DNA of 64,000 bases from an uncultured Clostridia bacterium (lineage in GTDB: Bacteria; Bacillota; Clostridia; Christensenellales; UBA1242): positions 73,178 to 137,177 of the forward strand of contig CALWRJ010000010.1 of assembly GCA_944383915.1 (NCBI GenBank), in the 5' to 3' direction. Shown here piece after piece: positions 41,877-61,874 of this stretch. Each line of letters starts with the position of its first letter. Position 1 is the stretch's first letter. The notes under the pieces were generated by a model. It worked only from the letters and a program-made list of their open reading frames with translations. It was not told the origin of the DNA and did no database searches. A program made the position numbers and the translations under genes.

Positions 41877-41953
41877 GCGCCATTAGCTCAATTGGATAGA
41901 GCGTTGGTCTACGGAACCAAAGGTTGGGGATTCGAGCTCCTCATGGCGCACCA
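41877..41953 (+). tRNA. tRNA-Arg (anticodon ACG), CCA encoded
   Basis: Cloverleaf folded by hand: GCGCCAT/ATGGCGC acceptor, GCTC/GAGC D stem, TTGGT-CTACGGA-ACCAA anticodon arm, GGGGA-TTCGAGC-TCCTC T arm. Confidence 0.9.
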
Positions 41954-41958
41954 AAGAA

Positions 41959-41991
41959 AGTGTATGCCTAATTTATGGCATACACTTTTTG
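41959..41991 (+). terminator. rho-independent terminator after the tRNA
   Basis: agtgtatgcc / ggcatacact stem plus a T-run. Confidence 0.7.
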
Positions 41992-42175
41992 TTTTGTGTT
42001 GTTGTCGCTTGAATCCTGTTGGGGATTTGGTCCTTTCGGACACGAACCGCGAGCAAGTTGCTCCCACCTTTCGTTAAAAAGCATATAATGTAACAAAATT
42101 AGAAAAGTGAAAAGTAAAACAAATTTTGCTAATTTTATAGTTTTTGAAAATTTTTGGTTATTTGTGTAAATTTGA

Positions 42176-42206
42176 TTGACTTGGAGTGTACTCCAGGTGG
42201 TAAAAT
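42176..42206 (+). promoter_or_regulatory. MerR-type promoter with 19-bp spacer containing a palindromic operator
   Basis: TTGACT, then a 19-nt spacer tggagtgtactccaggtgg holding the inverted repeat TGGAGT/ACTCCA, then TAAAAT. Lies 28 nt upstream of the merR-like start. Confidence 0.6.
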
Positions 42207-42233
42207 TAGTGGCAAAGGAGGTCGAAAACTAAA

Positions 42234-42623
42234 ATGAATATAAGTGAAGTGAGCAAAACTTGCGGAGTTTCGCAAGACACTTTGCGGTACTATGAAAAAG
42301 TTGGGTTGATTAATCCCGTGCCAAAAAAGAACGGCAAGCGCGACTACGGTCAACGCGATTTGGACAACATAAATTTTATATTATGTATGCGAAGTGCTGG
42401 GCTTTCGATTGAGATTTTAAAGGAATACATTTCGCTAACTCGCGAAGGTGACGGCACGGCTGAGCGTAGAAGGGAAATTTTGATTGAACAACGGGATAGA
42501 CTCAAAGAGAAAATTAAGGAAATGCAAGATGCTTGCAAAAAACTTGATTACAAAATTGATGTTTACTACACAAAAATGCTGTCTAGTGAACAAAAATTTT
42601 TAAAAGGAGAAGGGCATGAGTAA
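42234..42623 (+). CDS. MerR-family transcriptional regulator
   Basis: MNISEVSKTCGVSQDTLRYYEKVGLI HTH plus a coiled-coil dimerisation helix. Confidence 0.9.
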   Translation: MNISEVSKTCGVSQDTLRYYEKVGLINPVPKKNGKRDYGQRDLDNINFILCMRSAGLSIEILKEYISLTREGDGTAERRREILIEQRDRLKEKIKEMQDACKKLDYKIDVYYTKMLSSEQKFLKGEGHE

Positions 42624-43128
42624 AGTTTTAGTTGTTTATTTCTCGCGTGCTGGGCAAAATTACACTACTCACGGACTACAAAATTTGCAAAAAGGCAATA
42701 CTGAAATTGTGGCTGAAAAAATCGCAAAATTTTTAGGCGCGGACTTGTTTAAACTCGAAACAGAGCGCTCATATAGTACGGAGTATTATGCTTGTTGTGA
42801 TGAGGCAAAAGAGGAGCAGAACAACGATGCGCGCCCAGCACTAAAAAGCGTGCCAGATATTTCAAGTTTCGATACAATCATTTTGGGGTATCCAAATTGG
42901 TGGGGCACGATGCCAATGGCTGTTTGGACATTTTTGGATAGCGTTGACACGAGTGGGAAAACTATTTATCCATTCTGCACAAATGAAGGTAGCGGAATGG
43001 GGCGTAGTGCTAGTGATTTAGCGAAACTTGCTCCCAGCGCAAACATCCAAAAGGGCTTGGCAATCATTGGTTCTCACGCAAATGAAGCGGACGAAATGAT
43101 AAAAAATTGGCTAAAAGATTTGGCATAA
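42616..43128 (+). CDS. flavodoxin-like protein (Flavodoxin_4 type)
   Basis: KVLVVYFSRAGQNY...ILGYPNWWGTMP pattern. 8-nt overlap with the merR-like gene. Confidence 0.85.
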   Translation: MSKVLVVYFSRAGQNYTTHGLQNLQKGNTEIVAEKIAKFLGADLFKLETERSYSTEYYACCDEAKEEQNNDARPALKSVPDISSFDTIILGYPNWWGTMPMAVWTFLDSVDTSGKTIYPFCTNEGSGMGRSASDLAKLAPSANIQKGLAIIGSHANEADEMIKNWLKDLA

Positions 43129-43255
43129 TTTAAATTAATTTTCAGCATATTTTAATATTTTAGGAAATTTTTAGCCATTTTTCTATATATTAAGTTTTTC
43201 AAAAATTTATAAATAAATATTAGGGCTATTGATATTATTAAAAGATTAGAAAAGT

Positions 43256-43317
43256 TTAAGGAGTTATTACTTAAAATATTATAACTAGGTATTCCAGCCA
43301 TAATTCAAAATTCAAAA
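43256..43317. repeat. left arm of a 62-bp perfect inverted repeat (mosaic-element copy, minus orientation)
   Basis: ttaaggagttattacttaaaatattataactaggtattccagccataattcaaaattcaaaa is the exact reverse complement of 45938-45999. Confidence 0.85.
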
Positions 43318-43456
43318 ACCTAATTCAAAACTAAGCAAAGCCGAACAGCAAAGCGTAAAGTTCATAGCGTAAGAAAGGCTTTGTTTTTTTATTTTTTCAG
43401 TGCAAACACTTGCTTAATATTACTCATTTTTTGTATAATAGATTAGAGGTTGTGTT

Positions 43457-43594
43457 ATGTGTCTATTTAGATTATTAAAAATTTTTATACCTATTGCAAT
43501 AATTGGTGTTGTGGTGTATTTTGTGTTTTTCTTTGATACATCGCAAACTGATGAAAGCGCAGAGGCGCTATTGCATTTAAATTCTATTTTTTAG
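43457..43594 (+). CDS. candidate 45-aa small membrane protein
   Basis: AGAGG RBS 7 nt upstream. MCLFRLLKIFIPIAIIGVVVYFVFFFDTSQ... has one TM. Stop is 9 nt before the next gene. Confidence 0.4.
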   Translation: MCLFRLLKIFIPIAIIGVVVYFVFFFDTSQTDESAEALLHLNSIF

Positions 43595-43603
43595 AGGTGA
43601 GTA

Positions 43604-44227
43604 ATGCAAGAAAATGAAGATTTAGAACAAAATAACGAAAGTCAAAAAGATTCGCAAGAATCTCAAGCGAGTGCGAATTTAGATGAATCTAATAGACAAC
43701 AGGCAAAAGGTGCAACTACTCTAGAATCGGAGCAAAGTGCTCAAGAAACAGATATGAGTGGCAAGCGCAGTAATCCTATAAAAGAAGCGCAAAAGCGCCG
43801 AGAATTAAAAAAAGCAAAGAAAACGACTATGAAAACTTTGCGTAAGAACCCTTATCGCAAAAATCAAATTATTTTACGAAAGGCTGAAAATCAAGCAAAG
43901 GAGAATCCTCAACTTCGGTCTAATTTAAAAAATTTTAAAGATAAGGTAAGACAGCGTGAACAACTTGGACCTAAGATTCGTGAAGCAAATGATATTGAAC
44001 AATTAAATGAATCAAAAAATGAACTAGAAAAAGAGGACAACAAACTACAAAATATGTCTCAACCTATAAAACTTATGATGTTCCTAGAGGATATGAAAAA
44101 TGTCTTTTCTGGTCCAAAGGGTTGGGTGAAAGGTTGTAAGGGGTGTTTTTCTAACTATTGTATAATGCTTTGCGTTATAGGAAGCGGTGTGTTGACAGGT
44201 ATCCTAGCGCTTACAGGGGTGTTTTAG
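43604..44227 (+). CDS. hypothetical tail-anchored protein (Q/E/K-rich, C-terminal TM)
   Basis: AGAGGTGA RBS. Disordered body, Cys-rich juxtamembrane segment (GCKGCFSNYC) and a terminal TM. Confidence 0.55.
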   Translation: MQENEDLEQNNESQKDSQESQASANLDESNRQQAKGATTLESEQSAQETDMSGKRSNPIKEAQKRRELKKAKKTTMKTLRKNPYRKNQIILRKAENQAKENPQLRSNLKNFKDKVRQREQLGPKIREANDIEQLNESKNELEKEDNKLQNMSQPIKLMMFLEDMKNVFSGPKGWVKGCKGCFSNYCIMLCVIGSGVLTGILALTGVF

Positions 44228-44230
44228 TTA

Positions 44231-45052
44231 ATGGCTAAATTAAAAAACAAAAAAGGTTGCTTAAAATATGGTATTTTGTTTCTTGTGGCTTTTGTAATTG
44301 TTGCGGTTGTGGCAGTTATTTTGATACTTAATAGTCTAAATAATCAAGAAACTTTTAATACGCGTTTAACCGAACTTTTGTGTAGGGAATATACTCCGCC
44401 AACAAATATGGTTGACGAGTACGCGGTTACATCTTTTAACAACAAAATTTCTACCACGGTTAGCGCACTTGACGGCGAGCCGTTGGTTGTGAATAATGTG
44501 CTTGATGTGGCGAGATTTGTTTCGAATAATATTGTTTTTCGCAGTCAGTTAGTGTTAAATAGATACGATATTGCAGTTTTTGTAAATGATTTTTTTGCGA
44601 ATCAAAATGTTGGTGATAGCGAAATAAATTCGGCTTTTAGCCTTGTAAATTTAGATATAGATTATCAAGTTGAGTCAATGCGCAGGATAGTTTACAGGGC
44701 TACTTTTCAAGTTGAGTTGGATAAAATGCTAACACTTCCCGTTAATAAATCGCAAGCGCCAGAATATATGTATCTAACTTTAAGTGCTACATACAATCTA
44801 GATGCGCAGACGCAGAACGCGATTGAAAGTGCTAGTTTAAGCGTAAATGGGCTTTGGGGTGATGATAACACTTATGCGGTAGAACAAATTTTAGCAGTGT
44901 TTGATAAAACAACGAATGATATAGCAGGCTTTGCGCGTGCGCCTTTTGAATATATAACAAGGCAGTGTCAGGTGTGGGGCGTAATATTTGGTGTAGAAAA
45001 AGATAGTTTAGACAATACTTTGTTTACTTTTGGTTATAGAACAGGTGATTAA
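44231..45052 (+). CDS. hypothetical N-terminally anchored extracytoplasmic protein
   Basis: Signal-anchor LKYGILFLVAFVIVAVVAVILIL. Starts 3 nt after the previous gene. Confidence 0.55.
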   Translation: MAKLKNKKGCLKYGILFLVAFVIVAVVAVILILNSLNNQETFNTRLTELLCREYTPPTNMVDEYAVTSFNNKISTTVSALDGEPLVVNNVLDVARFVSNNIVFRSQLVLNRYDIAVFVNDFFANQNVGDSEINSAFSLVNLDIDYQVESMRRIVYRATFQVELDKMLTLPVNKSQAPEYMYLTLSATYNLDAQTQNAIESASLSVNGLWGDDNTYAVEQILAVFDKTTNDIAGFARAPFEYITRQCQVWGVIFGVEKDSLDNTLFTFGYRTGD

Positions 45053-45682
45053 ATGCAAAATGATTTATACGAAATTTTATCTAAAAAAGATGTTTTTTTA
45101 ATGGATTTTGACGGTACAATAGCGGACACCGAACCGCTAAATTTCCTTACTTTAAAAACTCTACTTAAACGCGATGGGCTCGAATTTACAGACGAGCATT
45201 TTCGCCAAATGGTAGGGAAAAGTGCTTTTGAATATTTAGACCTTATAAATAAAATTTTCGGTACTCATTACACAACCGAAAATGAAGGAAAGTTGTATAT
45301 CGATACTTTTAAGGAAATTGCGCATACTCACGCGCTTCCTGTTTTTAAGTATATTGGTGAATTGCTACAAACTTTCCCTAATAAACGCAAAATTATATTA
45401 TCTAATCAGTCTGATTCTGTTATTAGAGATATTTTGTCCAATTGTGGTATTGTAGATGAATTTGAAAACATTGTTTCGTGTTTTGTAAAGCAAATTAAAA
45501 AGCAAGATTATTATCTTAATACGAAAGAATTTTTAAATGCCGAGCCTGATAAAATTGTTCTTTTTGAGGACTCGCAACGCTACATTGACAATGGCAAAAG
45601 CGCAGGCTTTACTACAATCGGCGTAACAAATATTTATAACGGCGGAAAATTGAAGGCAGATTTAATTATTGAGGGACAATAA
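45053..45682 (+). CDS. HAD-superfamily hydrolase (subfamily IA, phosphatase/beta-phosphoglucomutase-like)
   Basis: DFDGTIADTE motif I. ~210 aa with a cap domain. Confidence 0.85.
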   Translation: MQNDLYEILSKKDVFLMDFDGTIADTEPLNFLTLKTLLKRDGLEFTDEHFRQMVGKSAFEYLDLINKIFGTHYTTENEGKLYIDTFKEIAHTHALPVFKYIGELLQTFPNKRKIILSNQSDSVIRDILSNCGIVDEFENIVSCFVKQIKKQDYYLNTKEFLNAEPDKIVLFEDSQRYIDNGKSAGFTTIGVTNIYNGGKLKADLIIEGQ

Positions 45683-45690
45683 AATTAATA

Positions 45691-46306
45691 AATTAGCAAT
45701 TAGCAATGAGCAATTAGCAGTTGTTGTGCGCGTGCGCGCAAGCCTTTACGCTTCGCCGTTCGGCTACGCGTAAATTAGGAATTAAAAATTAAATTAATTT
45801 TTATCATATTATGCAAAAATTTTTGCAAGTAGCAAAATCTTTTTGCAAGATAAAATTCCGCTACGCGCGGTGCGGCGGGGGTAGAGCCCCCGCTGGCTCA
45901 TTACGCCTTCGGCGAGTACTTTATCGCTATGCTCAAATTTTGAATTTTGAATTATGGCTGGAATACCTAGTTATAATATTTTAAGTAATAACTCCTTAAC
46001 TGCTAATTGCTAATTGCTAATTCTCGCAAAGCGAGTAAGACTGCTAATTGCTAATTGCTAATTCTCGCAAAGCGAGTAAGACTGCTAATTGCTAATTGCC
46101 TTTACGCTTCGCCGTTCGGCTTCGCTTAATTTTGAATTTTGAATTTTGAATTTTGAATTAAGGCTGGAATTATTTAAATATAATATAATTTTATACTCAG
46201 CAATAACTGCTAATTGCTAATTGCTAATTGCTAATTTGCGCTACGCGCATAGGCTTGCGCGCACGCGCCCCGTAATTCCTAATTACTAATTCCTAATTTC
46301 TAATTA
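45691..46306. repeat. mosaic repeat island B (heptamer arrays, triloop hairpins, GC-rich modules, AT-rich cores)
   Basis: Read directly. (AATTAGC)4 at 45691; GC module at 45721-45770; 16-bp palindrome tgcaaaaatttttgca at 45812; three-hairpin module at 45855-45935; (GAATTTT)n at 45936 and 46128; (GCTAATT)n at 46000, 46043, 46084 and 46208; 41-bp tandem units at 46023 and 46064; (TAATTNC)5 at 46273. Confidence 0.9.
45938..45999. repeat. right arm of the 62-bp perfect inverted repeat
   Basis: Exact reverse complement of 43256-43317. Confidence 0.85.
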
Positions 46307-46330
46307 ATTTTTAGTGATAACTTTTTTATT

Positions 46331-47065
46331 TTAATCGTTGTTGCGGAGAATTAGTATAGTTGTGATAAAACGGACAAGGGTAAGTATACTTATCAAAAGC
46401 GAAGCGACATAAGTCATTGCTGCGGCGGTGAGCATTGATTTCGCTTGCTTTATTTCGTCATCGGTGGTGATATAACCGCCTTCTTTTAATTGCCTCATTG
46501 CGCGTTTTGATGCGTCAATTTCGGTAGGCAAGGTTACAAGACTAAAAAGCATTGCTAGTCCAAAAAATGCAATTCCCGCGTACATAACAATATTTCCAAA
46601 AAGCGAATTCCAGCCTGCGAAAATATTTATAAGTAGCCCTATTATTACTAATGGCCATAAGATTTTGTCGCTAAAATTGATTACTGGCACTAAAAAAGTA
46701 CGAATTTTTGATGCAAGATTACCTTCTTTTCGTTGAATGGCGTGTCCAACTTCGTGCGCGGCTATACTAAGAGATGCAATAGTATTTTGTCCATAAACAC
46801 CTTGGCTTAGCGAAATTGTATCTTTGCTTGGGTTGTAGTTGTCCGTCATTTCGCCTGGAATTGATACAATATTTATCTCATAAAGGTCGTTTTTGTCTAA
46901 AATTTCGCGTGCGACTTGGTCACCTGTCTTATCGGTGCTAGATGGTTTTATGCCTTTTGTGCGTTTGTACGCGCTAGAAACTTTTGCTTGCGCCCAAATG
47001 GCTAAAATAATACCTGGCACCATAATAATACCTAATAGCCAATATAAAATATAAAAATCTAACAT
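46331..47065 (-). CDS. putative neutral zinc metallopeptidase (Zn_peptidase_2 / PF04298-like membrane protein)
   Basis: HEVGHAIQ zinc motif, TM helices at both ends. GGAGA RBS. Confidence 0.85.
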   Translation of the reverse strand: MLDFYILYWLLGIIMVPGIILAIWAQAKVSSAYKRTKGIKPSSTDKTGDQVAREILDKNDLYEINIVSIPGEMTDNYNPSKDTISLSQGVYGQNTIASLSIAAHEVGHAIQRKEGNLASKIRTFLVPVINFSDKILWPLVIIGLLINIFAGWNSLFGNIVMYAGIAFFGLAMLFSLVTLPTEIDASKRAMRQLKEGGYITTDDEIKQAKSMLTAAAMTYVASLLISILTLVRFITTILILRNND

Positions 47066-47241
47066 ATTTCTCCTAAAATAGTTTTTATCATTATACTATA
47101 AAATTAAGATAAAATCAAATGTTTAGCGCTCACTCTTTTATTAATTAAAATAATAACATTATTATAAACAAAATTGTGTGAATTTTGTGTAGTTTTATCT
47201 ACATTTCCACTTTTTTGTGGAAAACTTTGAGCGCAAATATT

Positions 47242-48204
47242 TTATGCGTAATCGATGTTTGTTATACGGTTTTCGCGAATGTCAAAGTGGTAAGTTTTGG
47301 TAAAACGCGGATTGCCGTTATATACGAGTGTTAGGTTATATGGTGTTTGTTCTAAACATTGTCGCACCTCGATAAAGTCGCCGAAATATGCGCGCAAATG
47401 CTCGTTTTTTAGGCTTGTGCTAAGGCTCGGGTGAAGGTATGTCCGCGCAAGTGAGTAATTTTCGATATTCAAGGCTTCCATAAAGGCTTGCGGAATTGCT
47501 TGCGGGCAGGCGGGCGAAATTGGTTCATTTTGAGTGAATACGGAATATTGATTATCCTTTATAAATGCTCCGTTTTTTTGTTGGTAAACGCTAACTATAC
47601 CGTGCCGTGCAATATCTTGTAAATTTTTTAGCGTAACAATTTTTGTGCCGTCAAACTCGATTTTGTCGGCGGTGTATTCAAATGCCACTTGTAAATTTTT
47701 ATTAAGTAACAATAAATAACTTTGTTCGTTTGCTAGTTTGCCTAAAATTTGGATAAAATCGTAATTTTTTGTGGCTTTTACATCAAATAAATCATTATTT
47801 AGCGGGTACGACAAATTGAGTTTGCCATTGCTGATATTTAGCATATGCTTATTGATTGTAATAATTGTGTCATCGAGAGTTGTATAAAAAGGTGCGGTAT
47901 TTTGTGCGGTGTTTGGAAGGGTTAGTGACGATGTCGAAACAATAAAGTTTCGCGCGCCGTAGTCGATAATTGCAATATTTGAATGGTCGCAAAGAAGTTT
48001 GTTGGCGCTAATATTAAGTTTTGCGGAAAACGGAATTGAAATTTCGTCTAACGAGTTTGAAAGGGGATAACATGACAAAATAAAGTCCTCGTCTATTTCA
48101 ATTGATAAGTAGTCGTTAGGGCTTTCAACAAAACCGATTTGATGATTGTTTATACAGTACATAGTTTTATCATTACTTGTGATATGCACAAAAATTTGTT
48201 CCAA
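47242..48204 (-). CDS. hypothetical protein (320 aa)
   Basis: TTG start with GAGG 8 nt upstream. No domain recognised. Confidence 0.5.
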   Translation of the reverse strand: MEQIFVHITSNDKTMYCINNHQIGFVESPNDYLSIEIDEDFILSCYPLSNSLDEISIPFSAKLNISANKLLCDHSNIAIIDYGARNFIVSTSSLTLPNTAQNTAPFYTTLDDTIITINKHMLNISNGKLNLSYPLNNDLFDVKATKNYDFIQILGKLANEQSYLLLLNKNLQVAFEYTADKIEFDGTKIVTLKNLQDIARHGIVSVYQQKNGAFIKDNQYSVFTQNEPISPACPQAIPQAFMEALNIENYSLARTYLHPSLSTSLKNEHLRAYFGDFIEVRQCLEQTPYNLTLVYNGNPRFTKTYHFDIRENRITNIDYA

Positions 48205-48308
48205 AATATAAACCTCGAAAGTGTATTTATTATAAAATATGCTTTTTAAAGTCTAAAATATAATTTTTTGGTTAATAATTGCCTTGATAATTTATTTAGG
48301 GGTGAATT

Positions 48309-49373
48309 ATGAAAGACTTTTCTATAATGGGTTGGAGCGAATTGGAGATTAAAAGATTGTTAAGTTTTGTGCTAAACAGGGGAGATAAAAGTTTATTATC
48401 CGTTTTTGATGATTTTGCAAGTAAAACGGGAAGGCGTCCGTATAGCGTGCGTAATTTTTATTATAAATTAATAAATCTTGCAGAGAAAAATAGCGAAGTG
48501 GCAAAGGCGGTTAATTTTAATAAAATTTCTAACAATATGAAAAATAATCATTTTTCACAAAACGACACTAAAAGTTTATTACGCACACTATTAAATAATG
48601 ACAAAAATATTAGTGTTAGACGCGCGTGCTTAAATCTAGCGAATGGTGACGCTAAACTTATGATTAGGTATCAAAATAAATATCGCAATATTTTAAAAAC
48701 TAATATAAAACTTGTTAACGAAGTGGCAAACGAGTTAAGACAAAATGGTGTGCGCGTGCGAAAATATGATAAATTTGGCAATAATTTAGTAAAATTTGAT
48801 AAAAATTATGGAAATTTCAATGATTTTGCACAAAATTCAACAAAATTTAGCGAAAATTATCAAAAAAATAATAAAATAGCAAAAAATACAGCAAAAATTA
48901 ATGAAAATTATTTAAAAAATGAGATTTTTAATCAAAAATCGGCAAAATTTAATGAAAAAACATTAAATTTTGATAAATTTAACCAAAATATAGCAGTTAT
49001 GCCTACGCAAAATGATAAACTTACGGAAAACGATATGCAGGCGCTTTTTTTAGGGCTAGTGCGTTTGGTGAAGCGGAGTGCCGAACACGAAGTAGCGCAA
49101 AATTTAAAAAGGGAAGCCGAATTTGCTAACTCCGCGCTTCAAAATTCTCTTATTGATTTAAGGCGTAAAGAAGTGTTGATAGCCGAACTTAAAGAGCAGA
49201 ACGAAAAATTAAAAATAAAACTCGATAAATTAGAGAAAAATTTCCAAAAAAATCAAGAAAAAATGGTTGGCAACATCTCGACAATTTCTGTTTTGTTAGG
49301 TAACTCTAAAATAGACGAACTAAAAAATTTTGTTGAGAAATTAAGTTTAAAAGAAAGGGGAGAGTTTGATTAG
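48309..49373 (+). CDS. hypothetical protein with SANT/Myb-like N-terminus, N/K/F-rich repeat region and C-terminal coiled coil
   Basis: AGGGGTGA RBS. WSELEIKRLLSFV...RRPYSVRNFYYKL. Central NF-x-KF-N degenerate repeats. Confidence 0.5.
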   Translation: MKDFSIMGWSELEIKRLLSFVLNRGDKSLLSVFDDFASKTGRRPYSVRNFYYKLINLAEKNSEVAKAVNFNKISNNMKNNHFSQNDTKSLLRTLLNNDKNISVRRACLNLANGDAKLMIRYQNKYRNILKTNIKLVNEVANELRQNGVRVRKYDKFGNNLVKFDKNYGNFNDFAQNSTKFSENYQKNNKIAKNTAKINENYLKNEIFNQKSAKFNEKTLNFDKFNQNIAVMPTQNDKLTENDMQALFLGLVRLVKRSAEHEVAQNLKREAEFANSALQNSLIDLRRKEVLIAELKEQNEKLKIKLDKLEKNFQKNQEKMVGNISTISVLLGNSKIDELKNFVEKLSLKERGEFD

Positions 49374-49374
49374 T

Positions 49375-49909
49375 TTGCATAGCACTATGCTTTAGTGCTA
49401 TGCAAAAATTAGCAATTAGCAATTAGCAATTAGCAGTTAAGGAGTTATTTCTTAAAATATTTATAATCTAATAAATTTCAGCCTTGATTCAAAATTACAA
49501 GAAAAATACGAGTTTTTATATGCATAGTACCTAAAATTTGTGGTTTTATGCATTATTTTTAGTGCATAGTACTATAAAATTTTGAACTTGTGTTCAAAAT
49601 TTAATTAGCAATTAGCAGTCTTACTTGCTACGCAAGAATTAGCAATTAGCAATTAGCAGTCTTACTTGCTACGCAAGAATTAGCAATTAGCAATTAGCAG
49701 TTATTGTGCGCGTGCGCGCAAGCCTATGCGCTTCGCTTAATTTTTGCCTTGGAGTATGCAATGCACACGGAAAGCCAGCCAATAGTTAGAGTAATTGTTA
49801 AAGTGAGTGGCTCACGGCTGAATTTTGAATTTTGAATTACGGAGTTATTTCCAAAAGTCATCTTATATTTAGAAATACCTTCCTTAACTGCTAATTGCTA
49901 ATTGCTAAT
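49375..49909. repeat. mosaic repeat island C
   Basis: 11-bp-stem palindrome ttgcatagcac/gtgctatgcaa at 49375; (AATTAGC)n; TGCATAGTAC motifs at 49520 and 49562; palindrome aaattttgaac/gttcaaaattt; two 41-bp tandem units with CTTGC-TAC-GCAAG hairpins at 49623 and 49664; GC module at 49703; (GAATTTT)n at 49820; (GCTAATT)3 at 49888. Confidence 0.9.
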
Positions 49910-49974
49910 TTGTAAAAGGTTGCTTTAATTTTTATTTTATGCTAAAATTGAATAAAAATTACAAAGGATAAAGT

Positions 49975-52900
49975 ATGCAACTTAATTTTGTTTTTGGAGA
50001 TAATTTTAACGACATTACAAGCGAGCAAATTTCGCTTATTGGTAAAGGTTTAAAAAACAACAAAAAGCAACTTGTAATTGTACCAGATAGATTTTCGCTA
50101 ACTATGGAAAATCGCATTTTAAAAGAGTTAAACTTGACTGCTACTTTCGATATCGAAGTAGTTTCTTTTGCGCGTCTTGCGAGCAAAGTTTTATCTAAAG
50201 AAAATGCTCCGCAAGTGTTATCTAGTCTTGGCGCGACTATGGTAATTGAAAAAATTATCACTGACCACGCAAACGAGTTGCAGTGCTTTAAAAATACTTC
50301 TAAAACTATCGCCTTTGCAAGTGTGTTGTTTGACTCAATAGCGCAGTTGAAAAGTTGCAAGGTTACGCCTGCTGATTTATTTAAAAATATGGATAATATT
50401 AAAAACAACGCACTCCGTTTAAAACTTAACGATATTGCGCTTGTCTATAAATATTATGAAGATTTTTTGGCGAACGATTTTATTGACTCAAATAATAGGC
50501 TGACGCTATTAGGCGAGATAATTACGGACTCAATAGATTTTGAAAATACCGATGTGCATCTATGTAATTTTGATAGCACTACGGCACGCGCGCTCGATGT
50601 TGTGCGCATTATGATTAAACACGCAAACTCGTTTAGTGTCGGGCTTCTTGTTCCTGAACAAAATCAAAAAAACGGCGATTATTATATTAGCGATATGCAA
50701 AATTACTTTTTTACACTTTCTAAAAATCTAGGCATTACTCCTAACTTTATTACCGCAAAAAACACGATGCCAGCCCTTTTTCGCCAAATTTTGCACAACG
50801 CTTTGGCAGTCGAGCCTGAAAAAAAAGAAATTACAACAAATGACGAAGTGCGCCTTTTTAGCACAAACAGCCCAAATAGCGAAGTCGAGTTTGTGGCGCA
50901 AGATATTATTTACAAAGTGCATAACGGTGCGCGTTTTCGCGATTTTGCGATAAACTGCACGAATATTGAGAGTTACGCGCCTATTTTTATTCGTGTTTTT
51001 GAAAAGTATAAAATTCCGTATTGGATAGACAACCCTGTAAAACTCGAGGATATCGAAGGCACAAAATTTATTTTGACCGCACTTGATGTCTTGCTTGATA
51101 ATTTTCAAGTAAAAGATGTGTTGAGTTTTGCGAAAAATGCGTTTAGTAATTTAAGTATCCGCGATTATTCGGTATTTGAAAATGTGGTTACAAAATACGG
51201 AATTGTTGGCGAGCGGTTTATGTCTAATGAAATCCCTGAATACGCCGATGATGAGTTTAAAGAATATTTGAGCATTAAGCAATTTTTAGTGCCACTTTTT
51301 GACCTTGATAAAAATATTTCGGGAAGCCACACGGTAGGCGAGATGATTTCGGCACTTCGCAATTTTATGACACAAACTAATCTGGAAGCAAATATTAATG
51401 GAATGGCGCAGGCGTTTAGCGAGAGCGGAAATTTGTTAAAGCAAAGTTTGTCGCGTCAAAATTTTGCAAAAATTGACAATGTGCTAACACAAATGCTCGA
51501 TATTTTAGGCGGTGTTGAATGCGATTTAGGGCAGTTTATCAAAATTTTACGCGCTGGAATCTCGACTGTAACGATTTCGCCCTTGCCTATGAGTGTCGAC
51601 TGTGTCTACATTGGGCAAAGTCTTGCGAGCGTCTTTAATGTAGTAGATTATTATTATATTGTCGGCGCGGTGGACGGAGCCTTTCCTGCATATGTCCTTG
51701 ATGTTGGGCTTATTGCCGATTATGATATTTTAGAACTCGGCGAGTCCGCTATAAAAATTTCGCCGTCTATTAGGGAAGTGAATGCGCGCAGTCGTGCAAG
51801 TGTCTTAAATAGTCTAGGAATGGCGCACAAGCAATTAAATATTTTGTACCCGCTTAATATGGGGGAGGATGAATGCAAACCTGCAAGCGTGGTAAGTAGC
51901 ATTTGCCAAATTTTACAATATAAAGGTGAAAATTTGCCTATTATTTCGCTTCCTGAAATGCTTGCGGACAACAACGCATTTGGCGGGCAAGAGCGAAGGC
52001 TAATGTTTCTTTGGAGCGAGCCAAACAAGATGTTGCGCGGTTTCGTTGACGAACTCCAAAACCCAAACAGCACGATTACTCCGCCGACACTTGCAAGTAT
52101 TTATAATTATTTAGTTGAAAAGGGCTATAAAGATAGGCTTGACGAGATTTTTAAAAATCTATATAGGCAAAATGTAGTTGAAAGGCTAAATAACCCTGAA
52201 AGCCTATTTTTTACGAATGGTAAAGCACGCGTAACGCAAATTGAACGCTTTTTTAACTGTCCGTATGCGCACTTTTTAAACTACGGACTTCGCCTTAAAG
52301 AAAGGGAGAAAAGTACGCCCGAGGCTGTGGATATTGGTAACATCTTGCACGCCGTTTTTGAAAATTTCGGCAAAATTATCCGCGAGCGCGAAGTAAGTGA
52401 TAGTGAGATTGAAAGCATTGTTCCTAAAATTTATGACGAGATTTTAGCGCGCAAAGAGTACGGAAGGCTTTTATATAGTGGCGAAAACGCGTACTTGCTT
52501 GAAACTTTAAAAAACGAGGCTGTGCGCGCGTGTAAAGCAATTAGTTATCAACTTTCGCATTCAAATTATAAAATAAAATTTATCGAAAGCAGTTTTGGAA
52601 GTCCTAACTTTGCGCGTATTCCCGAAGTGGCGGTGATTAATACTAATATTAAGGTAAAAATTAGCGGAAAAATCGACCGCGCCGATGTTTTTGGAAATCG
52701 ATTAAGACTGATTGACTACAAGACGAGTAAGGCGAGCGGAACGCTAAAACTTTTAGACTTTTATTTAGGCAAAAAAATACAACTTTTCTACTATATGCAA
52801 GTAATTTTACACGATTTAGGGCTTCAGCCTGGCGGTGCGTATTATTTGCCCGTTCACCGTGAATACGAGCGAGAAGGCAAGTCTACAATATATTCAAGTT

Positions 52901-53298
52901 ATCGTTTTGACGGAGTGTCTGTTTACACAGAAGCAAATATGCTGGCGCAAGATGACCAACTAAACTACGACCACCCGACAAGTGATATTGTCCCTAGTAA
53001 GATTAGTACTGCTAAAAAATATGTTGATGAAGGTGTTATAAAACTAAATGACATAAAGAATAGTTCGGCAACCGAGGAGCAGTTTAATAATATGCTAAAA
53101 TACGCAAAGGCGGTGCTAGAAGGTGCGATAAATGATATTTACAATGGCGAAATTAGACCGCTATTTATCGAAAACGCGTGCGAGTACTGTAAGTATAAGT
53201 ATATTTGCAAAAAAGGTGCTTCACCAAGCGTGTTAGAGCGCAAGAAAAATTTTGATGTAAAACTTGATTCTTTCGATTTAGGGGGAAATGATGGCTGA
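49975..53298 (+). CDS. addB: helicase-nuclease AddB/RexB subunit
   Basis: Position upstream of and overlapping addA. C-terminal RecB-type nuclease (GKIDRAD...LIDYKTSK) and Fe-S cysteines (CPYAHF...CEYCKYKYIC). N-terminal Walker A is degenerate. Confidence 0.9.
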   Translation: MQLNFVFGDNFNDITSEQISLIGKGLKNNKKQLVIVPDRFSLTMENRILKELNLTATFDIEVVSFARLASKVLSKENAPQVLSSLGATMVIEKIITDHANELQCFKNTSKTIAFASVLFDSIAQLKSCKVTPADLFKNMDNIKNNALRLKLNDIALVYKYYEDFLANDFIDSNNRLTLLGEIITDSIDFENTDVHLCNFDSTTARALDVVRIMIKHANSFSVGLLVPEQNQKNGDYYISDMQNYFFTLSKNLGITPNFITAKNTMPALFRQILHNALAVEPEKKEITTNDEVRLFSTNSPNSEVEFVAQDIIYKVHNGARFRDFAINCTNIESYAPIFIRVFEKYKIPYWIDNPVKLEDIEGTKFILTALDVLLDNFQVKDVLSFAKNAFSNLSIRDYSVFENVVTKYGIVGERFMSNEIPEYADDEFKEYLSIKQFLVPLFDLDKNISGSHTVGEMISALRNFMTQTNLEANINGMAQAFSESGNLLKQSLSRQNFAKIDNVLTQMLDILGGVECDLGQFIKILRAGISTVTISPLPMSVDCVYIGQSLASVFNVVDYYYIVGAVDGAFPAYVLDVGLIADYDILELGESAIKISPSIREVNARSRASVLNSLGMAHKQLNILYPLNMGEDECKPASVVSSICQILQYKGENLPIISLPEMLADNNAFGGQERRLMFLWSEPNKMLRGFVDELQNPNSTITPPTLASIYNYLVEKGYKDRLDEIFKNLYRQNVVERLNNPESLFFTNGKARVTQIERFFNCPYAHFLNYGLRLKEREKSTPEAVDIGNILHAVFENFGKIIREREVSDSEIESIVPKIYDEILARKEYGRLLYSGENAYLLETLKNEAVRACKAISYQLSHSNYKIKFIESSFGSPNFARIPEVAVINTNIKVKISGKIDRADVFGNRLRLIDYKTSKASGTLKLLDFYLGKKIQLFYYMQVILHDLGLQPGGAYYLPVHREYEREGKSTIYSSYRFDGVSVYTEANMLAQDDQLNYDHPTSDIVPSKISTAKKYVDEGVIKLNDIKNSSATEEQFNNMLKYAKAVLEGAINDIYNGEIRPLFIENACEYCKYKYICKKGASPSVLERKKNFDVKLDSFDLGGNDG

Positions 53299-56200
53299 TA
53301 ATTTCAACAAGGACCAACTTTTAGCAATAAACACTTTCGACAAAGATATTTTAGTATCTGCGGGGGCGGGAAGTGGTAAAACAAGTGTTATGATTGAGCG
53401 AATCGCGAAAAATATCATTGAAAACGATGTAAATGTCAATGATATGCTTGTCGTTACTTTTACTAACGCCGCGGCAAATGAAATGCGCCTAAAACTTGAA
53501 AAAAAGTTGTTTGATGTCTTAAAAACTACCACTGATGAAGGTGTTAAAAAGCGCCTAAGAGAACAGATTGATATGCTCGGGCAAAGTGATATTTCTACAC
53601 TCCATAAATTTTGTATATCGGTAATTCAAAAGTACTTTTATATAATCGATGTTGACCCATCTTTTGCGGTCGGTGATGAGAGCGAAACAGCGCTAATTCG
53701 TGCGCGCGCTTTAAATGATGTTGTGCGCGAGTGTGTTAAAAATAATGATGCGAATTTTAGGTTGATTGCTTCGACTTTTGACAGCAAGCGAAATTTTGAT
53801 AAAATTAAGCAAAATATCTATAAAATTCATATATTTTTGACTAATTTACCCGATATAAACGAGTACAAAAACCGCATAAACAAGGCATATAGCGGGGGAA
53901 TTGACGACAACGATTTTGCAAAAATTTTAAACAATTACATATTAGAAATTTTTGAGCATTATTCTTTGTTATTTAGTGATTTAAAAAATGATGCCACAAT
54001 TTTAGGCTATACTGATTTAGTTGCATACTTAAATGAAATTATCCCTATTTTAAATAATATTACCCCTGCTAAATCGTTTTCAAAAAACACTTTTGCAGTT
54101 TTTAACCTTCCACAATTTCCGCAACTTAGGATAAAGACAACTTCGCCCGAGCAAGACGATTTAAAGGATAAAACGGGTAAGGTAAAAGAAAGTTTTTCAA
54201 ACACCTTAAAGCAACTGCGCGAAAAATTAATAACTGACGATTTAGAAAAGTTGGAAAACGATTTACTTGACACCAAAAAAATAATTGACGCGATGTTTTA
54301 CCTTGTTGAAAAGTTTGAAGCGCGCTACGGGGCTCTTAAAAAAGAGCGTAATATTTACGATTTTTCGGATTTAGAGCACTTTGCGTATAAAATTTTGTGC
54401 GATGACACCGTTTGCGCTGAAATAAAAAACCGATATAAACAAATTTATGTAGACGAATATCAAGATATAAACGATATTCAAGAAGGAATTATTGCTCGCG
54501 TACATACCGAGCGCGACCTATTTTTAGTTGGCGATGTAAAGCAAAGTATTTACGGTTTTCGTAATACTAACCCGCAAATATTTTTGGACAAATTAAACGA
54601 TTTTGATAATTTAAATAACGATGAAAACTGCGCGATTAGATTAAATTTTAACTATCGAACGGACCAAAAAATTTTAAATCTTGTAAACTTCGTATTCGGC
54701 AAACTTATGACAAAACACCTAGGTGGAATAGACTATTTGCCGTCTAATAAAATGGAGTCTGACATCGAGTTTAAAATGCCAAAAAATAGCCTTCCTGAAA
54801 TCGAATTTAATATAATAAATAAGCCTTCTAACGAAAAAGAAAGGGAGGAGGTAAGTGGCGTTTACCAAGTTAGCACAGCGCCAATTATAGAAAGTGTAGA
54901 GCGCGACTACGCACACAGCGAAGGTGTGAAAATTGCCGAAAAAATAGCCGAATTTATGACAAAACAACGCGTTATTTATGACGCAAAAAACAAGACTTTC
55001 CGCGATATAAAATATAGCGATATCACCCTTTTGTGTAGCACGCGCTCTGACGATGTCTACACAATTTTAGACACTATTCGCGAGTACGGTATCCCTGTCG
55101 GCATTCTCAATAAAGACGATATTTTTAACGAGTACGAAATTCAAGTTTTGTTTGCGTATTTAAATTTGGTAAATAACCCCTTTAATGATATTTATCTAAC
55201 TACACTCCTTGCTAGCCCTATTATAAATTTAAGCGAAAACGACCTCGCGCGCGTGCGTGCGTGTGCGCCCGAGCGCGACAATTATTATGAATGTGTGCTT
55301 GATTATCTAAACCGCGATGATGAGATAGCGAAAAAACTAAATTATTGCTTTGAATTGATAAATAATGGTGTTGATTATTTATTAAATGACAATATTTATA
55401 ATCTATTAAATTATTTTTGCGAGCAAACGCAGTATTTGGTACTTATTAGTTCGCTTGAAAATGGTACTAACAGGGTAAAAAATATGATAGGGTATATAAA
55501 TAGTTTTACAGGCAAGAAATACAACAACAATTTGCGCGATTATTTGTCGAGCGTTGAGCAGGCGGAAAATACGCCAAAAGTTACGCCTGAAAACTCTATC
55601 GGCGATGATGCAATAAATATTGAAACGATGCACAAGAGTAAAGGGCTTGAATATCCTATTGTCTTTTTAATTAACACAGGTCACCGCTTTAATGACGAGA
55701 ATAGAAAGGGCGACTTTATACTTCATAATACCCTAGGTATAGGCACAAATAAATACGATGTCGAAACGCGTACGCAAGTGCCGACACTATCTCTTAATGC
55801 TATAAAAATTGCGATGCGCGACAAAGAATTTGCCGAAAGCCTAAGGCTATTGTATGTCGCAATGACGCGCGCAAAAAACCACTTAATTATTACAGGGTGC
55901 GCCGATGTTGAAAACCTAAAATCAAGTATAACAACATTTGCAATCAAATCAAATAACAACTTTTTACAAATTTTACTTTCGGCTCTAAATAAAGACGAAA
56001 TTACTTCTTTATCAAGTGGTATTACAGAGTTAAAACTGCCAGTAAGCGAAAATAACAGCCTAAAAATTTCCGTTTTTGAGCATATCGACTACAACACAGA
56101 AAAGCAATCTAACATTATAAAAAAGCACGATTTTGACAGCATAAACGCAAAAATGAGCGAGATACTTGCAAATTTTGGTGACTATACCTACAAATTTGAT

Positions 56201-60446: not shown

Positions 60447-60466
60447 AGTAAGAGTATACAATAAAA

Positions 60467-61082
60467 ATTAGGAATTAGCAAGCAACTCGCTATGCGAGAA
60501 TTAGCAATTAGCAGGTAGCAATTAGCAGTCTTACTCGCTACGCTCAAATTAGCAATTAGCAATCTTACTTGCTTCGCAAGAATTAGCAATGAGCAATTAG
60601 CAATTAGCAGTTGTTGTGCGCGTGCGCGCAAGCATATGTGCGTAGCGCAATTTTGAATTTTGAATTTTGAATTATTGCAGGAATATCTAATAATTTTTTG
60701 CTCTTTTTAAACCATTTGCAAATTTTAGAACATTTGTTCGTTGGTACAAATAAAGTATTAACTTATAAATTAAGCACATTAAAACCTATGTTAATTAATA
60801 AATTAATTATAGTACTATGAGAGTTTTACTCTCATGATATTTCCTTGATTTTTAGTGGTAGTACTTTTAATTGTTGTTTGTTATAAAGCTATGAGAGTTT
60901 TACTCTCATCGCTATAAGTTAAATTAGGAATTAGTAATTAGGAATTTTGGTCGCTGACGCTCGAATTTTGAATTTTGAATTAGGAATTATGGCTAGAAAA
61001 TATTTAAAAATATTTTTAAATGCTTGCGCGCACGCGCACAACAACTGCTAATTGCTAATTGCTAATTCGCAACGAAGTTGCG
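60467..61082. repeat. mosaic repeat island D, left part
   Basis: Hairpins CTCGC-TAT-GCGAG (60486), CTTGC-TTC-GCAAG (60568) and CGCAAC-GAA-GTTGCG (61068). Also (AATTAGC)n arrays, GC module at 60611-60648, (GAATTTT)n at 60650 and 60964, two copies of ctatgagagttttactctcat at 60816 and 60889, and (GCTAATT)3 at 61046. Confidence 0.9.
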
Positions 61083-61110
61083 GAAAGCGCAGCCGAAAGG
61101 CGAAGCGTAA

Positions 61111-61209
61111 AAAAACAACCTAAAAACAACCGAAATTCAACCGAAAAACAACCTAAAAACAACCCAAATTCAACCCAAAAACAACCCAAAAACAACCCAA
61201 AAACAACCA
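61111..61209. repeat. tandem array, 9 x 11 nt (AAAWWCAACCN)
   Basis: Units counted base by base: aaaaacaacct, aaaaacaaccg, aaattcaaccg, and so on. Confidence 0.9.
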
Positions 61210-61463
61210 ATTGAAAATGAAATCGTGATCGTAAACGGAAATTCCGAACGATAAAAAAAATAAAAACTTTCTCTCTTTCTATGGCTTGTTGGGTGGCGAT
61301 AAAATGCTAATCTAATATTTATAATAATTTTAAATTTTAGTGGTGATAAAAACTTGTTAAAACAGTTTTAATGGATTTCATTTATATCACTTTTTAGAAA
61401 TATAATTCTAAATTTTTCGTCTATGAATGAATGGCTTTAATATAATCTAAATCACTTACAAAA

Positions 61464-61595
61464 AACCAAGAAAATAACCAAGAATAAAACCAGCAACATA
61501 ACCAGAGAAACAACCAGAGAAACAACCAAGAAAACAACCAGAGAAACAACCAAGAAAACAACCAGAAAAACAACCAGAGAAACAACCAGAAAAAC
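61464..61595. repeat. tandem array, 11 x 12 nt (AACCAGAGAAAC-like)
   Basis: Units counted base by base. Followed by a GGAAA-rich run and a ~60-bp tail shared with the 61111 array. Confidence 0.9.
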
Positions 61596-61740
61596 AACCA
61601 AAGGAAAAGGGAAACGGAAAGGAAAACGGAAACGGAAATTCCGAACGATAAATAAATAAAAACTTTCTCTCTTTCTATGCTTTGCGGTGGGGGAGAATAA
61701 AAAATCTTGTACAACAACATAATTATTACTCGCTACGCTC

Positions 61741-61855
61741 GAATTTTGAATTTTGAATTAGGAATTAAGGCTGAAATTATTAAATATAATATAATTTTAT
61801 ACTCATCCTTAACTGCTAATTGCTACCTGCTAATTGCTAATTCTCGCAAAGCGAG
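61741..61855. repeat. mosaic element copy (GAATTTT array - AAGGCTGAAAT core - GCTAATT array - CTCGC-AAA-GCGAG hairpin)
   Basis: The core aaggctgaaattattaaatataatataattttatactca is nearly identical to 46161-46199. Confidence 0.85.
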
Positions 61856-61874
61856 CAAACCGAATGGCTCAGCG

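Follow-up and report, generated by a model that had tools for sequence, protein, structure and literature searches.

Inverted repeats around a conserved membrane-protein operon of an uncultured Clostridia bacterium are probably copies of an intergenic mosaic repeat

The locus described here is part of a 64,000-nt stretch of DNA (referred to as the window) of an uncultured Clostridia bacterium (Christensenellales; UBA1242), which represents positions 73,178 to 137,177 of the forward strand of contig CALWRJ010000010.1 in assembly GCA_944383915.1. The window has a GC content of 35% and is a housekeeping region that includes dnaN, der, plsY, nrdR, feoB, addAB, prfA and prmC. In its last third, an operon of four genes is bracketed by two perfect inverted repeats of 62 nt (referred to as the arms; coordinates in Table 1). 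A compact gene block enclosed by a long perfect inverted repeat looks like a genetic switch or a mobile cassette, and this locus is a case for caution, as the arms are probably two module copies of a non-coding mosaic repeat that happen to flank an older operon.

The four open reading frames (ORFs) of the operon are encoded on the plus strand between the arms and are separated by gaps of 9, 3 and 0 nt, as had been reported in a preliminary description of this DNA, which was made from the sequence alone. The assignment of the fourth gene to a HAD phosphatase, also made there, was confirmed by profile matches (HAD_2, PF13419, E=3.9e-19; TIGR01509 for HAD-IA, 47.7 bits vs a cutoff of 29.4). The plus-strand GC skew of the operon (+0.17 to +0.20) is like that of the flanking plus-strand genes, and its GC content is like that of the surroundings.

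Related loci were collected by searching 185,579 species genomes with an alignment of seven p273-family sequences; the search yielded four loci (L007-L010) in GTDB metagenome-assembled genomes (MAGs) that are named uncultured Clostridia bacterium or uncultured Christensenella sp., and a metagenome contig (L006) was included as a fifth relative. p45 is conserved in L006, L007, L008 and L010 (43-49% in tblastn; 56% in the pairwise alignment to L006) and is a called ORF in L009. For p207, homologues with 37-38% identity are present in L006 and L007, none was detected in L008, L009 and L010, and no Pfam, NCBIfam or PHROG match was obtained. The p273 family is small; it forms 31 clusters (50% identity) within 1.84 billion protein representatives, and two clusters only were obtained in a word-indexed search. 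Its members have a length of about 260 aa, and a KKGC motif before the transmembrane (TM) helix and an IN-x-L-T-G-E-D-N-x-Y-A motif are conserved. No Pfam, NCBIfam or PHROG family was found for p273. Its AlphaFold2 model is confident (pLDDT 88, pTM 0.78) and has no fold match in the PDB (best Foldseek E 0.17). The p273 gene always adjoins a gene for a TM peptide of about 45-56 aa that starts with MCL.

The sequences 43256-43317 and 45938-45999 are exact reverse complements of each other (62/62 by exact comparison, as first noted in the preliminary description), and 2,620 nt separate the two arms. No longer exact repeat, in either direct or inverted orientation, exists in the 64-kb window, and a match of this kind by chance is excluded. 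Identity breaks off sharply at both the outer and the inner edges; the 60 nt outside and the 80 nt inside of the two arms are unrelated to each other. No ORF spans either arm. Each arm is a copy of a mosaic element, again in agreement with the preliminary description, and comprises a GAATTTT array, the motif GAATTA[A/T]GGCTG[G/A]AAT, an AT-rich core and CCTTAA. In the left arm, the outer TGCTAATT array is missing; in five of five other aligned copies, this array comes after the core. The mosaic module that adjoins the left arm on its inner side forms an inverted repeat of 80% complementarity with the module upstream of copy B (87% over 71 nt by BLAST). The neighbours of the two arms differ, and thus the perfect 62-nt tract sits within otherwise unlike mosaic contexts.

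Table 1. Coordinates of the operon, the two arms and associated features within the 64-kb window (position 1 is the first nucleotide of the window; MFE, minimum free energy)
Feature	Position	Strand or orientation	Remarks
tRNA-Arg(ACG), left anchor	41877..41953	+	also found upstream of the operon, on the same strand, in the four related MAGs
Left arm	43256..43317	reverse	'A-type' mosaic core module and two AAAATTC heptamers
Diverged mosaic module adjoining left arm	43318..43360		similar to the module upstream of copy B (46100-46153) and unlike the inner flank of the right arm
Long hairpin followed by T-run	43334..43400	+	GCAAAGCC...GGCTTTG; MFE and centroid fold of 43129-43456
Operon promoter (predicted)	43410..43439	+	-35 TTGCTT (43410-43415), 18-nt spacer, -10 TATAAT (43434-43439)
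p45	43457-43594	+	45 aa, single TM, starts MCLxRLLK...
p207	43604-44227	+	207 aa, charged, C-terminal TM anchor; Cys-rich motif FSGPxGW..CKxCFSxxCIM conserved
p273	44231-45052	+	273 aa, N-terminally anchored, uncharacterised family
HAD-IA phosphatase	45053-45682	+	209 aa, DxDxT motif in FLMDFDGTIADT
Convergent spacer	45683..46330		648 nt; AATTAGC/TGCTAATT and GAATTTT arrays, GC mini-hairpins, 41-nt tandem duplication (45999-46099), cores A (right arm) and B
Right arm	45938..45999	forward	same 'A-type' core module, then TGCTAATT arrays
Mosaic copy B core	46142-46229		within HAD/Zn-peptidase spacer
Zn_peptidase_2, right anchor	46331..47065	-	convergent with operon; PF04298, E=5e-75
Mosaic copy E	49407..49505	-	among the other copies, nearest to the arm core; common to both: TTAAGGAGTTATT.CTTAAAATATT
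Mosaic copy C	61741..61842	+	B-like core
Mini-hairpins	46023-46035, 46237-46249, 49624-49636, 60486-60498, 60568-60580, 61068-61082, 61843-61855

The mosaic family is built of tandem heptamers (GAATTTT, TGCTAAT/AATTAGC and GGAATTA-like units, the second also appearing as GCTAATT), an AT-rich core of about 45 nt that begins with GAATTA[A/T]GGCTG[G/A]AAT and mostly ends with CCTTAAC, GC mini-hairpins, and larger GC palindromes. As seen in the alignment of copies and in repeat tables, these motifs are combined in variable order, number and orientation. Seven copies, aligned in one orientation, follow a common module order, and their cores have diverged (mean column identity 66%). Only the two arms are identical to each other, and they form an 'A' subtype. 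Copies are located in the spacers 43129-43456, 45683-46330, 49374-49974 and 60462-61874, and from 63761 to the end of the window, and all arrays of the GAATTTT and GCTAATT types are intergenic and lie between 43.3 and 64 kb. No such arrays occur in the first 43 kb, despite the presence of many spacers of 200-800 nt there. The limitation of the repeats to the last third of the window suggests a local, proximity-biased spread of repeat modules.

In the preliminary description, the perfect identity of the arms was set apart from the noticeable differences among the other copies. This view stands with respect to the cores, which are diverged, but not with respect to exact tracts, as other pairs of copies have exact tracts in common of 60 and 58 nt (41-nt tandem duplications), followed by 44, 37, 36 and 35 nt. 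The arm pair is thus the longest in a graded series of shared tracts rather than an isolated case. Given such tracts of 35-60 nt between other copies, module exchange or duplication would be common in this genome. Tandem duplications of a unit of 34-41 nt ([AATTAGC]n plus a mini-hairpin) were observed at 45999-46099, 49603-49701 and 60516-60597; within each of the two 41-nt arrays, the units are 100% identical, a sign of very recent slippage or duplication. Short-read scaffolds break, or contain N-gaps, at the tandem-duplicated units, and scaffold L005 has 100 N at 49.65 kb. An apparent length polymorphism of 100 nt in this scaffold at the 49.6-kb tandem repeat was rejected, since it is this scaffold gap.

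The mini-hairpins have a stem of 5-6 bp and a loop of 3 nt and are located directly after each TGCTAATT array. Their stems vary yet stay complementary (CTCGC/GCGAG, CTTGC/GCAAG, TGCGC/GCGCA, CGCAAC/GTTGCG; a small sample), and several have C-GAA-G or C-GTA-G tri-loops. Tri-loops of the GNA type give unusually stable DNA mini-hairpins. Stems that differ but remain complementary, together with GNA-type tri-loops, suggest that the mini-hairpins may be under structural selection at the DNA or RNA level.

Gene order at the related loci was established by tblastn of the window proteins, ORF lists and tRNA scans. The common order is tRNA-Arg(ACG)(+), 0-3 variable genes, p45(+), p207(+), p273(+), HAD(+), Zn_peptidase_2(-), p320(-), p354(+), AddB(+) and AddA(+). 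Within this order, p207 is present only in the window, L006 and L007, a putative helicase gene follows p273 only in L006 and L007, and a HAD gene occupies the same position in the window, L007, L009 and L010, where L008 instead has a gene for a 657-aa protein. Relative to both anchors, the block points the same way in the window and in four of four MAGs, even though p273 is only 30-50% identical. The Zn-peptidase is 66-92% identical in L007-L010 and encoded on the strand opposite to p273; on the left side, a gene for a U32 peptidase is also syntenic in L008-L010.

No notable inverted repeats were found around the block in L007-L010 (the best pairs are 24-37 nt long and 71-81% complementary, which is typical of AT-rich DNA), and these four loci contain neither heptamer arrays of the types in the window nor BLAST matches to the mosaic spacers. 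L007 is the closest relative, with a Zn-peptidase that is 92% identical; there, the spacer between the HAD and Zn-peptidase genes is 74 nt long and contains a single bidirectional terminator; it is 648 nt long in the window. Since the block is found in the same place and direction in four species without the repeats, it is ancestral and vertically inherited, and the repeats are later, lineage-specific additions to both spacers. The operon does occur without the repeats, but at the same locus, and always in one order and orientation, which speaks against the functional invertible or mobilisable segment that the preliminary description had considered.

Two parts of the block vary among the relatives. 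The interval between tRNA-Arg(ACG) and p45 (41954-43456 in the window) contains genes for a MerR protein and a flavodoxin in the window, a MerR gene and genes for 298-aa and 134-aa proteins in L007, and one minus-strand gene for a 146-aa protein in L009; in L008, p45 starts 179 nt after the tRNA gene. This interval looks like a small tRNA-adjacent variable spot beside a conserved operon. In the closest sister lineage, a gene for a protein of about 800 aa is inserted between p273 and HAD (L006, 2450-3709; L007, 11094-13505), which looks like a superfamily-2 helicase as judged by reading of the translation. Its position between p273 and HAD implies that the HAD gene is not an obligate part of the p45/p207/p273 unit.

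A promoter was predicted upstream of p45, where a block that comprises GCTTGCTT, 17-18 nt, AGTATAAT, a ribosome-binding site and ATGTGT is conserved in the window and the four MAGs (about 150 nt upstream of p45 aligned). The promoter is located 93-122 nt inward of the inner edge of the left arm, i.e. between the arms, so that an inversion would carry it along with the genes and not uncouple it from them. The preliminary description had expected that inversion would separate the operon from a promoter at 43.3-43.45 kb; this is not borne out, as the whole interval lies between the arms and the conserved promoter inverts with the genes. Judged from this conservation, the operon is a putative self-contained transcription unit with its own promoter. 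The long hairpin between the left arm and the promoter may be a terminator of the upstream flavodoxin transcript; it was not called in a consensus terminator scan, and the same scan detected no canonical terminator between the HAD stop codon and the right arm.

The arms themselves were considered as promoters and as RNA elements. Outward promoter activity of the arm core was rejected, as TTGAAT and TATAAT are 19-25 nt apart across the copies (19 nt in the arms); a consensus promoter scan found no outward promoter in either arm, and the sole match that overlaps an arm (46006 to 45978, minus strand) is directed inward. Similarly, the arm as a structured RNA was rejected, since the folds are not significant (z = -0.2 and -1.8) and no Rfam family was matched.

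Assemblies of the same species were examined for the orientation of the block. Contig L004 (ENA ERZ24773235, 9,028 nt) corresponds to 45226-54253 of the window with one mismatch; it carries the right arm and both of its flanks at 100% identity, with the HAD gene, the arm and the Zn-peptidase gene in the orientation of the window. Contig L003 (ERZ28614008) covers the sequence from the flavodoxin gene up to and including the first 55 nt of the left arm; its end at this point fits a k=55 de Bruijn graph that meets a 62-nt repeat. The window and L004 agree in orientation, and L003 and L005 are interrupted within or next to the repeats (assemblies only). Exact-protein look-ups for further contigs over the left arm (with HAD, p207, p45, MerR and a 162-aa ORF) found none on record, and a look-up with the U32 peptidase found only a 2.9-kb contig that ends short of the arm. 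Contigs L001, L002 and L004 (from ERZ24773235 and ERZ28614008) all end exactly at 45226, inside the HAD gene, where L001 and L004 abut; the shared end is probably a coverage gap, and both assemblies possibly derive from the same low-coverage (about 3x) reads.

Domains were predicted with Pfam for the window ORFs of at least 100 aa, and the two AddAB genes were identified by precomputed annotation and similarity. No recombinase, invertase, transposase, Resolvase, Phage_integrase or Y1/RAYT (Y1_Tnp; RAYT, REP-associated tyrosine transposase) domain was found in the operon, its neighbours or any other scanned ORF of the 64 kb, which extends to domain level the statement of the preliminary description that no recombinase or transposase is inside or adjacent. 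No target-site duplication is present outside the arms; the outer flanks, ...AGAAAAGT on the left and CTGCTAATT... on the right, are unrelated (...GAAAAGT and CTGCTAA...). The terminal TTAA as a target-site duplication was rejected, as CCTTAA(C) is conserved core sequence in four of five other aligned copies. Searches of plasmid, phage and viral collections gave no similarity.

Compared with an inverton, the locus has the bracketing inverted repeat; a nearby recombinase is absent, and flipping would change no junction between promoter and gene or within a coding sequence. Compared with a mobile cassette, it has no target-site duplication, no occurrence at other loci or empty site, and no transposase within the 64 kb. 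Thus, at least two of the defining features tested are missing both for an inverton and for a composite transposon, and the locus is very unlikely to be either a genetic switch or a mobile cassette. Of the features of REP/BIME-type repeats (repetitive extragenic palindromes and bacterial interspersed mosaic elements), intergenic multicopy occurrence, a mosaic of motifs and palindromic hairpins are present.

The arms are probably, in our view, oppositely oriented module copies of a lineage-specific, non-coding intergenic mosaic repeat that flank an ancestral operon, and their inverted geometry would be a by-product. Mosaic elements in opposite orientation would have colonised both spacers of a pre-existing operon, which has kept its position and direction since before the arrival of the repeats. 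The 62/62 identity would then have arisen by recent copying from one spacer to the other, over a distance of 2.6 kb, most likely through short-tract gene conversion or module-level recombination between older, otherwise diverged mosaic elements. Recent duplication or gene conversion, which had also been suggested in the preliminary description, is the best account of an identical, sharp-bordered tract of 62 nt in a differing context. The inverted repeat would serve neither as a recognition site of an invertase nor as the ends of a transposable unit, and the arm pair would be an ordinary consequence of repeat proliferation. Recombination between the inverted copies could also resolve as a crossover, and would then lead to rare RecA-dependent flipping with little effect.

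Several points weigh against this interpretation. The evidence consists of consensus assemblies, in which a minority sub-population with the inverted segment is invisible, and the left junction is independently confirmed only to 55 nt into the arm, where contig L003 ends. The 64 kb that were read set the limit for the copy number of the A-type core and for a trans-acting recombinase or RAYT, either of which may extend beyond them. Gene conversion is indistinguishable from recent insertion of a module with the present data. Finally, 62 bp of perfect homology suffice for occasional RecA-dependent recombination.

The last point leads to the alternative that survives best, a passive, homology-driven flip, in which RecA-mediated crossover would maintain the 2.6-kb operon in both orientations at low frequency without a dedicated enzyme. 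The perfect 62-nt homology of arms only 2.6 kb apart, the sharp-edged tract of identity, which is the trace expected of non-crossover recombination between the arms, and the AddAB recombination genes in the same window are in its favour; the single orientation in the window, in L004 and in four of four relatives, and a GC skew that fits a segment which has long been in its present orientation, are not, and on balance we regard such flipping as unlikely. It would have little phenotypic effect, since the promoter moves with the genes, and it would be compatible, as a side effect, with the origin of the arms from mosaic repeats. A bolder version, in which the mosaic family is actively homogenising and the 62-bp pair is a live substrate that flips the self-promoted operon measurably in natural populations, is more doubtful again.

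A function at the RNA level would require that the 3' untranslated region of the flavodoxin transcript (left arm) and that of the operon (right arm) form a 62-bp duplex, in trans or by read-through, which could be an RNase III target that couples the decay of the two messages. Both arms are indeed downstream of plus-strand genes, the left arm precedes the terminator-like hairpin, and the right arm follows the HAD gene with no canonical terminator in between. The basis of this proposal is purely positional; the arms are not significantly structured and the relatives have no arms, and we consider it very improbable.

More improbable still is a programmed inverton, in which a site-specific recombinase encoded elsewhere would flip the segment as a means of regulating the membrane/HAD operon or neighbouring genes. 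The segment is discrete and bracketed by inverted repeats, and the arms are kept identical in two further assemblies too. Against these observations stand the lack of an invertase or tyrosine recombinase in the 64 kb, an internal promoter and the lack of any gene crossing an arm, with which flipping would have no obvious regulatory output, the lack of a good outward sigma-70-type promoter in the arms (TTGAAT and TATAAT being 19 nt apart), the fact that the arms are unremarkable copies within a dispersed repeat family, and the relatives that hold the operon without any inverted repeat. Least credible of all is a mobilisable cassette, in which two repeat copies would be the ends of a composite unit flanked by miniature inverted-repeat transposable elements (MITEs) that brought in the four genes: inverted terminal repeat copies do surround a compact gene set, but the proposal is contradicted by synteny, i.e. 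by the same locus in four repeat-free species, and also by the lack of a target-site duplication (the terminal TTAA being conserved core elsewhere), of a transposase in the window and of plasmid, phage or viral-contig copies, and by a GC content and skew like those of the surroundings.

Comparisons with known repeat systems were made on the basis of the general literature. By analogy, the elements would behave like the REP/BIME mosaics of enterobacteria, which are likewise short, non-coding, intergenic, multicopy motif mosaics in varied order and orientation with GC hairpins and compensatory stem changes, often follow convergent or co-directional gene ends, and are lineage-specific. In contrast to REP/BIME, to which they have no sequence similarity, the present elements contain heptamer arrays and an AT-rich core of about 45 nt, which are not BIME features, and no RAYT-type gene is present in these 64 kb. 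Intergenic arrays of 7-nt units are also known as STRR (short tandemly repeated repetitive) sequences of heterocystous cyanobacteria, and the BOX elements of Streptococcus pneumoniae (boxA-boxB-boxC) are similarly modular, with a variable number of internal units and potential co-transcription with neighbouring genes; STRR and BOX differ from the present elements in unit sequences and host phylum, and the arrays here are joined with cores and hairpins into larger mosaics.

Like the invertons of gut bacteria (Hin/Gin, Fim, Bacteroides Mpi-type and PhaseFinder-type), the locus is a DNA segment of a gut anaerobe that lies between inverted repeats. It differs from them in that it has no recombinase in its vicinity, its arms belong to a dispersed repeat, its promoter and its four genes all lie between the arms, so that flipping would have no obvious effect, and a single orientation was observed. 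With MITE-flanked units (e.g. integron mobilisation units), it has in common two inverted, small, non-autonomous repeats around a cargo; it differs in that the cargo is ancestral at its locus in relatives and without target-site duplication, and in that the element lacks terminal inverted repeats of its own. The element was also rejected as a MITE in its own right, as its ends are unlike arrays (GAATTTT at one end and TGCTAATT at the other) and no target-site duplication is visible.

The mosaic family of this uncultured human-gut Clostridia lineage is apparently undescribed, REP/BIME-like, and breaks short-read assemblies at these loci. The pattern of the whole element (GAATTWWGGCTGRAAT, a gap of 20-50 nt, TGCTAATTGCTA) gave no match in the 185,579 species genomes, an exact 22-mer of the arm core gave none in JGI metagenomes, and a search of viral contigs gave none either. 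A looser junction pattern gave two matches in JGI metagenomes, both of which were rejected on inspection as unrelated chance matches, and a literature search with heptamer-array strings returned unrelated papers only. The operon is of interest in its own right, as three of its products are conserved, uncharacterised membrane proteins, of which the 273-aa member has a confidently predicted fold without a relative in the PDB.

A further type of repeat, unlike the heptamer mosaic, was observed in the 1.4-kb spacer downstream of prfA, which contains two A/C-rich tandem arrays: the unit AAAAACAACCC is repeated about nine times at 61111-61208, and the unit AAACAACCAAGA about 12 times at 61460-61601. 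Both arrays are followed by the same tail of about 60 nt (GGAAATTCCGAACGATAAA...AAAACTTTCTCTCTTTCTATG), within which 26 nt are exactly identical (61258-61283 and 61654-61679).

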